DNA of 39,023 nucleotides from Candidatus Micrarchaeota archaeon (lineage in GTDB: Archaea > Micrarchaeota > Micrarchaeia > Anstonellales > Bilamarchaeaceae). A program made the position numbers and the translations under genes. Positions 5,869 through 16,246 of the stretch are shown in pieces. Location: the NCBI GenBank assembly GCA_023248035.1, contig JAHFFJ010000005.1, forward strand, positions 1 through 39,023. Direction: 5' to 3'. The notes beneath the pieces were generated by a model. That model did no database searches. It saw only the letters and a program-made list of their open reading frames with translations, and had not been told where the DNA came from. How positions within the stretch are numbered: the stretch's first letter is position 1; each line of letters begins with the position of its first letter.

Positions 5869-5905
5869 CCAGTTTTTGGTCAAACTTTTTTTCCAAAAAA
5901 GTTTG
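5869..5905 (-). repeat. REP-like hairpin copy at the start of tRNA intron 2
   Basis: Minus strand CAAACTTTTTT-GGA-AAAAAAGTTTG followed by the tail ACCAAAAACTGG. Confidence 0.8.
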
Positions 5906-15978: not shown

Positions 15979-16047
15979 TCGTTTGATGGGCAGAAGAGAA
16001 TAAAACCCGAAGGGGCGCGATTTTATACCTTGGCTGCGATTATTTGA

Positions 16048-16173
16048 GTGATGATGACCAAGGTGATCACTGAGTCACGCCCTAAGCTTGTGCCCTTCTA
16101 GTTTGTCAAAATTAGTTGGGCCAGGGGAAACCCGGCCACGGTTAATGACGATGACGATTGACGTGCGGTCTGA
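16048..16173 (+). ncRNA. Long C/D-box guide sRNA; predicted 16S targets C1402 and the 3'-terminal GAUCACCU region
   Basis: Box C ATGATGA 16051-57; 12-nt guide CCAAGGTGATCA; D' CTGA 16070-73; 77-nt structured insert; C' ATGACGA 16151-57; 12-nt guide TTGACGTGCGGT; D CTGA 16170-73; TATA-like TTTTATAC at 16021-28. Confidence 0.82.
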
Positions 16174-16246
16174 CCAACTTTTTTAGGAAAAAAGTTGGAC
16201 AAAAAACTAACTGTAATTTTAGGAAAAAGGTTTGACCAAAAACTAG
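16174..16246 (+). repeat. REP-like hairpin copy plus a degenerate second copy abutting the sRNA D box
   Basis: CCAACTTTTTT-AGG-AAAAAAGTTGG (16174-98) with tail ACAAAAAACT; partial copy TTTTAGGAAAAAGGTTTGACCAAAAACTAG at 16217-46. Confidence 0.8.

Follow-up and report, generated by a model that had tools for sequence, protein, structure and literature searches.

To our knowledge, the box C/D small RNAs (sRNAs) of mesophilic, small-genome archaea are almost unstudied. Here we analyze one such element in a stretch of 39,023 nucleotides (nt) from a Candidatus Micrarchaeota archaeon (contig JAHFFJ010000005.1 of assembly GCA_023248035.1; this whole stretch is called the window). The element occupies positions 16051-16173 of the plus strand and carries two guides that are separated by an insert of exactly 77 nt. 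The question raised by this locus is whether a single RNA addresses both the decoding site and the 3' end of 16S rRNA, and what the insert between its guides contributes. A model's annotation made from the letters of the window (the sequence-only reading) had proposed an oversized C/D RNA with this double target. Our analysis indicates that the best explanation of the whole is probably a transcribed dual-guide C/D sRNA for the decoding site and the anti-Shine-Dalgarno (anti-SD) tail, to which the insert has been added as a structural domain.

Results

One transcribed RNA with two guides

The element consists of box C, a 12-nt guide, box D', the insert, box C', a second 12-nt guide and box D. 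Its parts and flanking signals are listed below with their conservation in an alignment of 18 sequences, made of 17 of the 18 same-genus homologs described further on and the sequence of the window's own genome.

16021-16027, plus strand: TATA-like box TTTTATA seen in the sequence, a putative archaeal promoter
16051-16057, plus strand: box C, ATGATGA; TGATGA invariant in 18/18 aligned homologs
16058-16069, plus strand: D' guide CCAAGGTGATCA, resembling a Shine-Dalgarno (SD) sequence; pairs with GAUCACCU of 16S rRNA, predicted target (N+5) C1533
16070-16073, plus strand: box D', CTGA; C-N-G-A pattern whose C, G and A do not vary in the alignment
16074-16150, plus strand: insert of 77 nt, a three-way junction (helix P1, internal loop, helices P2, P3 and P4)
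16151-16157, plus strand: box C', ATGACGA; TGA invariant
16158-16169, plus strand: D guide TTGACGTGCGGT; pairs with 16S 1398-1409, N+5 at C1402, U opposite C1403
16170-16173, plus strand: box D, CTGA; invariant in 18/18 homologs
16174-16206, plus strand: A/T hairpin repeat with a run of six T (16179-16184), a probable terminator

The RUGAUGA and CUGA termini, the internal D' and C' boxes with their conserved GA and the two guides of 12 nt each agree with the criteria for archaeal box C/D RNAs, and the element is a real box C/D guide RNA. The boxes and guides named by the sequence-only reading are all borne out by the letters of the window, and the length that it gave for the insert is exact. 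A GTGATGA at 16048-16054 overlaps box C, and a tandem near-copy of box C' begins at 16145. The TTTTATA box lies ~22-28 nt upstream of the start, at 16049, of the RNA contig described below, and comparable A/T boxes are found ~27-33 nt upstream of box C in most of the 41 relatives whose elements were parsed.

The sRNA gene, of about 125-135 nt, is transcribed. The element was located by a sequencing search in two DNA runs and one metatranscriptome, which all belong to one groundwater study. A metatranscriptome contig of 153 letters and depth 39.6 (run X3) covers 16049-16166 with 0 differences. The loose ends of this contig are Illumina adapter letters that adjoin the match directly at both sides; the flanks are uncovered, and zero cover outside 16049-16166 in this run was not counted as evidence of absence. 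In the DNA runs there are also versions of other organisms whose two halves are joined by short linkers, of 13 and 38 letters.

A different explanation would be that the locus encodes two separate sRNAs, or that the insert resembles an intron and is spliced out to leave an sRNA of ~55 nt, since the size is unusual for archaeal C/D sRNAs, and since long introns occur in tRNA genes of this genome and inserts in its 16S gene. Molecules of ~118 nt that extend over box C, the insert and most of the D guide argue against both versions of this idea. The contig is single and unbroken from box C to the D guide, with uniform depth, and no junction bypassing the insert was reported for the RNA run. Furthermore, no conserved promoter-like or T-run element occurs within the insert, and helix P1 joins the insert ends into the stem of the C'/D' kink-turn. 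We consider this explanation scarcely credible. Separate transcription of the two halves, which the sequence-only reading had named as grounds for abandoning its proposal, is disfavoured by the one contig that spans both, and its claim of one oversized RNA stands.

The D guide and the decoding site

The decoding site in the 16S rRNA of the same genome reads ACCGCCCGTCAA. The D guide matches 11 of its 12 positions and places N+5 on C1402, as had been proposed, and the pairing of all 12 positions that had gone with this proposal is not found. The single mismatch, a U.C that adjoins the predicted target, involves C1403 and the sixth guide position from box D; its conservation had been overlooked. 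Among rRNA sites the decoding site is the best for this guide, at -16.7 kcal/mol with the next best at -13.5, and the mismatch carries a penalty of ~7 kcal/mol (-15.7 vs -22.9 for a perfect 12-nt complement). In the accessible text of Dennis et al. 2015 (PMC4644070), the criteria for archaeal guides are complementarity of at least 9 base pairs (bp) to rRNA or tRNA and a Watson-Crick pair at N+5, and one mismatch off the target base is accepted. With 11 of 12 positions paired and the mismatch outside N+5, the D guide lies within these limits.

Both sides of this pairing are conserved. Within the guide, TGACG and GCGGT are invariant in the 18 aligned sequences; 2 of these differ at the first guide base. 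Opposite C1403, 17 of the 18 have U and 1 has A; when counted by hand in 41 distinct parsed members of the family this base is T in 39 and A in 2, and it is U in all 17 archaeal matches of the scan of species genomes described below. We regard the mismatch as a selected feature of the family because of this count in the 41 members. On the rRNA side, 21 16S genes of relatives could be read (3 further loci lack the region); the target is identical in 20 of these, and the remaining one reads ACTGCCCG. From these sequence comparisons, methylation of C1402 by the D guide is likely.

The D' guide and the anti-Shine-Dalgarno tail

The 16S rRNA of this genome ends in ...GGATAGATCACCTCCAAATTT, with a tail that reads TAGATCACCTCCAAATTT. 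The D' guide pairs with GATCACCT through 8 contiguous bp (-13.2 kcal/mol), placing N+5 on C1533, and the two guide targets are 121 nt apart in the same 16S rRNA. The proposal of an SD-like guide with C1533 at N+5 is in agreement with this result, and the 12-nt match that had been hoped for is absent from the genome's own 16S and from its trailer. In relatives the pairing ranges from 7 to 10 nt and is 7-8 bp in most members. The 8 bp of this genome fall short of the 9 bp set in the accessible text of PMC4644070, and a perfect 10-bp complement to AGAUCACCUC is present in 3 of the 41 relatives by our own reading of the parsed list.

The D' guide contains GGTGATC, which is invariant in 18/18 aligned homologs. 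When the 41 parsed members were counted by hand, the base 5' of this heptamer was A in 33, G in 1 and C in 7, and either A or G can pair with U1537; the base that adjoins box D' is T in 12 of the 41, where it pairs with A1529; and at position 10 from box D' most members have an A that does not pair. This pattern of bases leads us to regard the anti-SD pairing as a selected feature of the family. The 16S tail itself is identical in 21/21 relatives read. We are less sure of methylation at C1533 by the D' guide, as predicted from its pairing, than of that at C1402.

No other rRNA site for GGUGAUC was found in the assembled 23S pieces, although the 23S gene is split and incomplete and a site in the absent part is possible. 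The sequence-only reading had added that a better 12-nt target for the D' guide elsewhere would count against it. The only other perfect 12-mer in the genome, at C2:9487 on the minus strand, was rejected as a target: it is the antisense of an SD and ATG, so that the guide is identical to the mRNA and not complementary to it. At this open reading frame (ORF) start (C2:9487-9498) a long SD, CCAAGGTGATCAGA followed by ATG, has 12 nt identical to the D' guide. The organism therefore uses SDs of the GGTGATC type, and the guide is a textbook SD sequence.

These features of the two pairings bear on an alternative in which the ribonucleoprotein (RNP) would pair with the decoding site and the anti-SD and methylate neither; its part would be purely that of an assembly chaperone, or of a mask by which immature 30S subunits are barred from translation, much like U3 or U14 domain A. 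The N+5 pairs at C1402 and C1533 are invariant Watson-Crick G-C pairs, the box geometry and the 12-nt spacing are canonical, the rules of PMC4644070, as far as its accessible text sets them out, allow one off-target mismatch, and Cm1402 and anti-SD methylations are among the modifications measured in another DPANN archaeon, according to the accessible part of PMC5389701; all of this speaks for catalysis. The alternative draws on the conserved non-pair beside the N+5 base at C1402 (U or A in every one of the 41 members, and U in 17/17 archaeal matches), on a D' pairing that in most members stays under the 9-bp rule of the same text, and on the prevailing non-pairing A at position 10 from box D', as if stability were limited. 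We consider that a binder without catalysis is unlikely.

Distribution of the family and linkage of the guides

When 40 relatives were searched by BLAST, 18 genomes of the same genus gave full-length homologs (72-82% identity), and 4 more genomes have the element broken into pieces or enlarged by longer inserts. Matches in the order's other families fell on the half comprising box C', guide and box D, or on the half comprising box C and its guide. These loci have the same two guides with linkers of 3-40 nt between them, with one exception that has an unrelated D' guide.

When all species genomes were scanned for both guides with a gap of 8-38 nt, 24 matches were obtained. The 17 archaeal ones each have a C box 4-5 nt upstream of GGTGATC; the 7 bacterial ones have no C box and were discarded as chance matches. 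The relatives with the exact pattern are labelled Candidatus Micrarchaeota, Anstonellaceae or Bilamarchaeaceae, and one is labelled Aenigmatarchaeota. Of the 401 genomes scanned in the phylum, 60 have the dual-guide pattern (0/401 for a reversed-pattern control): 48 of 75 genomes in the family of the window's genome plus this genome itself, 10 in other families of the order and 1 in other orders. On this distribution, the sRNA family is one of mainly the window genome's family that is scattered through its order.

Linkage of the guides was also examined in a non-circular manner, by searching for box C and the half formed by box C', D guide and box D, with the D' guide left free. This pattern was found in 57/401 genomes, and the free D' guide proved to contain GGTGATC in 53 and CGTGATC in 1. 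Since GGTGATC recurs in 53 of 57 genomes found without it, the sequences indicate that selection keeps the two guides together. The same guides are joined by linkers that range from 3 to ~130 nt in relatives; because these go down to 3 nt, large size is not essential to dual targeting.

A partial copy of box C and the first guide bases was observed ~50 nt upstream of the sRNA in four same-genus relatives (G018:C20:24537-24590, G319:C74:5879-5930, G012:C46:23816-23875 and G390:C1:37590-37645). It reads RTGATGAC[CT]AAGG in three and RTGATGACAACC in G012, and in 3 of the 4 (G012 differs) the copy precedes a hairpin and a segment that is its complement. It could be a leader structure or a remnant of duplication.

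The insert and its conserved structure

Folding of the 18-sequence alignment with RNAalifold gave a three-way junction for the insert, with these parts:

16074-16075 with 16148-16149, and 16079-16081 with 16140-16142, plus strand: helix P1 of the covariation structure
16082-16085 (CUAA) and 16137-16139 (CAC), plus strand: internal loop, both sides invariant in 18/18 homologs
16086-16088 with 16134-16136, plus strand: helix P2 of the covariation structure
16093-16120, plus strand: P3 hairpin with a GUCA tetraloop at 16105-16108; compensatory change in all 12 pairs
16124-16133, plus strand: P4 hairpin GGG-GAAA-CCC; 100% of cells paired, 1 covarying pair

The structure has 23 pairs, with 93.6% of cells paired vs 78.9% in shuffled alignments and 28-43% in slid controls. 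Its covariation score of 0.561 (0.279 in shuffles) was reached in 0/500 shuffles. The two hairpins of the sequence-only reading are real and covarying, and correspond to P3 and P4; the search for covariation among homologues that it had recommended supports the structure as a whole, with compensatory change in 16 of the 23 pairs. The G, U and C of the P3 loop do not vary, and its A hardly does. Most relatives cap P4 with a GNRA loop, and some with UUCG or another sequence. Pair 16081/16140, which flanks the internal loop, covaries between C-G and U-A.

The outermost pairs connect the insert to the boxes. A C'/D' kink-turn has its canonical stem in G16074-C16149 and U16075-A16148, which are 100% paired; they adjoin box D' (CUGA|G) on one side and the 3-nt bulge before the GA of box C' on the other. 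Because these outer P1 pairs abut D' and the C' bulge, we read the C'/D' motif as a kink-turn and not as the usual kink-loop (K-loop). Canonical archaeal C/D sRNAs have a short variable D'-C' loop that forms the K-loop, as described in the accessible text of PMC6009581. The D'-C' distance here exceeds such a short loop, and short-loop members of the family exist in relatives. The element thus resembles canonical archaeal box C/D sRNAs, such as snoPyro_CD (RF00095) and the Pyrobaculum families (PMC6009581), in its four boxes, its two 12-nt guides, the N+5 rule and its L7Ae, Nop5 and fibrillarin partners, and differs from those described there in the 77-nt three-way junction on a true kink-turn stem.

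The core of the module can be followed as the motif CYCUAAGC...GCCACRG. A count by eye put it in 38 of the 60 dual-guide matches; all 38 belong to the 49 matches in the window genome's family (76 genomes scanned), and 0 of the 11 matches outside this family have it. It is also present in 19 of 20 further members of the sRNA family that were fetched in full. Mini forms exist in which P2 is reduced to GC/GC capped by UUCG or GCAA, as do expanded forms with extra hairpins and linkers of up to ~130 nt. Further copies of the junction module were not found in the genome itself. Since the linkers of relatives vary so widely in length, the insert appears as a lineage-specific add-on, and the alignment evidence indicates that it is under selection.

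This conclusion has to be weighed against the possibility that the sRNA is an ordinary methylation guide and that its insert is neutral baggage without function, in a linker that tolerates insertions. The same guides around linkers of such different lengths would fit such tolerance, as would a second sRNA, on contig C75, with an A/T hairpin repeat at the same place, and the 16S gene, with three A/T-rich inserts of which one gave a BLAST match to the repeat downstream of the sRNA and the others are alike by eye. However, the CUAA/CAC loop does not vary between genera, nor do its flanks, and the adjoining stems change by compensation, and the module is present in 38 of 49 dual-guide matches of the family. 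These observations point to purifying selection on the sequence, and not on foldability alone, and make a neutral insert improbable. The insert is most likely a structural or docking module that is separate from target choice, to judge from its pattern of conservation.

Two specific roles for the conserved loops were considered. The GUCA(A) loop of P3 has the same sense as 16S 1405-1409 and could form 4-6 bp with UUGAC of the D guide. This pairing was left as weak, for guide position 12 changes (U, G, A, C) with no compensation in the loop. The internal loop, for its part, recalls the 11-nt GAAA tetraloop receptor, CCUAAG...UAUGG (bioRxiv 10.1101/2024.03.11.584472), with which it shares the 5' strand CCUAAG and, in many relatives, a GNRA-capped P4 nearby. 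The canonical receptor has a 3x2 loop closed by C-G, C-G and G.U pairs and the 3' strand UAUGG, whereas the loop here is 4x3 (CUAA/CAC) with CCACGG, and the mini forms with UUCG on P2 lack a GNRA loop of their own; identity with the receptor was rejected, as the covarying alignment pair 35-98 fixes the 4x3 register, with C-G and G-C flanks.

Host genome and machinery

The assembly is that of an archaeon from groundwater and has 1.17 Mb in 83 contigs, with 39.5% GC and 90% completeness. It encodes the proteins with which a C/D sRNA works, namely fibrillarin (PF01269, 272 bits), Nop/Nop5 (PF01798, 189 bits) and L7Ae (PF01248, 97 bits), all above cut-offs, and a KsgA/Dim1 homologue (PF00398, 160 bits) at C36:45507-46142. 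The sRNA is intergenic, and its neighbours are a minus-strand ORF for an SMC/Rad50-like ATPase of 766 amino acids and a Fic/DOC ORF. No match at gathering score to Rfam was found anywhere in the window, and with E-values of up to 10 the element gave merely partial snoRNA-like matches to one half.

A strict scan of the genome for the C/D pattern returned 20 matches, with 3 credible loci. Besides the element studied here, a second oversized candidate was observed at ~C75:15657-15777 (minus strand), with GTGATGA, a 12-nt guide, CTGA, a linker of ~75 nt that is the A/T hairpin repeat in two copies, ATGACGA, another 12-nt guide and CTGA. Neither guide has a convincing match in the assembled rRNA pieces. 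A short canonical candidate lies at ~C2:19190-19242 (minus strand), with ATGATGA, 12 nt, CTGA, CCTT, TGATGA, 11 nt and CTGA, and its D' guide has a 9-nt match in the 3' piece of the 23S gene.

The 16S gene (C76:21593-23322, minus strand) is 1730 nt long, compared with a model of 1478 positions. The extra length is due to three A/T-rich inserts of ~50-70 nt near 16S positions 700-757, 855-925 and 1217-1275. By eye, these inserts share a hairpin repeat (AACTTTTTTAGGAAAAA...GACAAAAAACT), of which BLAST matched only the third (C76:22064-22101). An A/T hairpin unit of ~33 nt occurs at ~15 sites in the genome, among them the 3' side of the sRNA (16174-16206), the 3' side of a tRNA-Leu gene, the interior of the 16S gene and window positions 5871-5903. 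Such units could be mini-introns, mobile hairpins or terminator-like units. The 23S gene is split over two contig ends, on C17 and C81, and model positions ~1875-1950 and 2076-2144 are unmatched. ARAGORN found only 6 tRNA genes in the assembly, 4 of them with introns of 53-159 nt; many tRNA genes may be missing from the assembly, be split or have interruptions at non-canonical sites.

Discussion

The box architecture, the unbroken transcript, the two conserved guides and the covarying insert together make up the case for a dual-guide C/D sRNA with a structural add-on. Several results weigh against it. The mismatch that adjoins the target could prevent catalysis at C1402, and so could, at C1533, a D' pairing of 8 bp that lies below the 9 bp given in the accessible text of PMC4644070. 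Three genomes of one genus, found in the scan for the D half, have the D guide with an unrelated D' guide. The fold of the insert as a single sequence is unexceptional (z = -1.40), and its minimum free energy structure differs from the covariation structure. No Rfam family reaches threshold, the best partial matches scoring 12.8-19.8 bits vs cut-offs of 36-80. The RNA support consists of one assembled contig from one run, of the same study as the probable source sample, and contigs cannot settle the ends, strand or abundance of an RNA. Finally, the presence of a KsgA/Dim1 homologue removes the rationale proposed for the closest published case, to which we return below.

The sRNA would be expected to work as follows. 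L7Ae, Nop5 and fibrillarin would bind it, and pairing of the D guide with 16S 1398-1409 would put fibrillarin on C1402 in the decoding centre. The D' guide, an SD look-alike, would pair with the anti-SD tail and set C1533 at N+5. Both pairings appear to be kept weak, one by the conserved U.C mismatch next to the target and the other by its length of merely 7-10 bp, and binding would therefore probably rely on both guides engaging the same pre-16S molecule. During late 30S maturation, the RNP could thus hold the top of helix 44 (h44) and the 3' tail open around helix 45 (h45) until it departs, an action that has also been proposed for sR13 of Nanoarchaeum equitans. The simultaneous binding and the chaperone role are inferred from the arrangement and weakness of the two pairings. 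The sequence-only reading had put forward, as roles that the RNA may have besides methylation, chaperoning of h44/h45 folding, maturation of the 16S 3' end and masking of the anti-SD in immature subunits. At D'/C' a true kink-turn takes the place of the usual K-loop, and its stem runs on into the three-way junction.

What this junction might touch can be suggested from its position. The platform would stand beside the D' duplex on the kink-turn, and the D' target begins one nt after h45, so that the CUAA/CAC loop and the junction could be a docking platform that contacts h45, perhaps at its GGAA tetraloop, or a factor of late 30S assembly. The sRNA would then act as a checkpoint ribonucleoprotein that senses the structure of the 16S 3' domain. 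We offer this as a speculation that is quite unlikely to prove right in this form. If it were true, the RNP would be an archaeal counterpart, evolved in a DPANN lineage, of the non-methylating, domain-bearing small nucleolar RNPs that eukaryotes have in the U3/U14 type, and the conserved mismatch and the short anti-SD pairing would tune its timed release.

Eukaryotes offer several points of comparison. In yeast U14 a structured internal domain, the Y-domain, separates two elements complementary to rRNA, and U3 is a C/D small nucleolar RNA (snoRNA) with an extra domain. U13/SNORD13 pairs with the 3' end of the small-subunit rRNA, and snR70/SNORD43 methylate the equivalent of C1402. These RNAs belong to another domain of life, and we know of no sequence relationship between any of them and the present sRNA.

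The closest published case is sR13 of N. equitans (Seistrup et al. 2017, PMC5389701), also listed in Dennis et al. 2015 (PMC4644070), a paper whose accessible text describes dual-guide sRNAs as likely folding chaperones. According to the accessible part of PMC5389701, sR13 pairs with 16S 1405-1415 and 1531-1540 and directs Am1408 and Am1534, both of which were measured; Am1408/1409, Am1534 and Cm1402 were measured there by mass spectrometry and RiboMeth-seq, and no sRNA for Cm1402 was found in that organism. Like the present element, sR13 as described there is a dual-guide C/D sRNA of a DPANN archaeon with guides on the top of h44 and on the anti-SD tail, spanning h45, and it was proposed to time the folding of the 16S 3' domain. 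It differs in its targets, which are A1408 (and 1409) and A1534 where here they would be C1402 and C1533, and in the order of its guides, which is swapped, with D' on the decoding site and D on the anti-SD (as far as can be told from a source text in which prime marks are lost). A large insert is not mentioned for sR13 in the accessible text, the comparison being one of descriptions and not of sequences. The host differs as well: the same text suggests that sR13 may stand in for an RsmA/Dim1 checkpoint that is absent from N. equitans. In the present genome PF00398 is present, and a reading of our sRNA as a replacement for missing KsgA/Dim1 was rejected; the rationale given for sR13 does not transfer.

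Bridging of the decoding site and the anti-SD by one C/D sRNA is thus already published for N. equitans and is not new. The novelty lies in a second, distinct family that has other target nucleotides, hosts with Dim1, two duplexes whose weakness is conserved and a selected extra RNA domain on the C'/D' kink-turn. A literature search, with subscription journals and supplements outside its reach, found no papers on C/D sRNAs of Micrarchaeota or of DPANN archaea beyond N. equitans.

For this organism, one of only three credible C/D loci in the genome addresses both 16S elements with which mRNA is in contact at initiation, namely the anti-SD and the decoding nucleotides of the P site. That a second DPANN lineage has a distinct family linking the same regions suggests that RNA-guided handling of h44, h45 and the 3' tail is a recurring solution, and that such handling is not peculiar to an organism without Dim1. 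The family leads to definite predictions, namely Cm1402, Cm1533, a tolerated U.C mismatch and partners of the CUAA/CAC loop. In addition, its members fall into a natural series that begins with a K-loop of 3 nt, passes through a hairpin and then a mini-module, and leads to the three-way junction and to larger forms. This series shows that a kink-turn with a selected extra domain, an architecture typical of eukaryotic snoRNAs, can take the place of the archaeal C'/D' K-loop.

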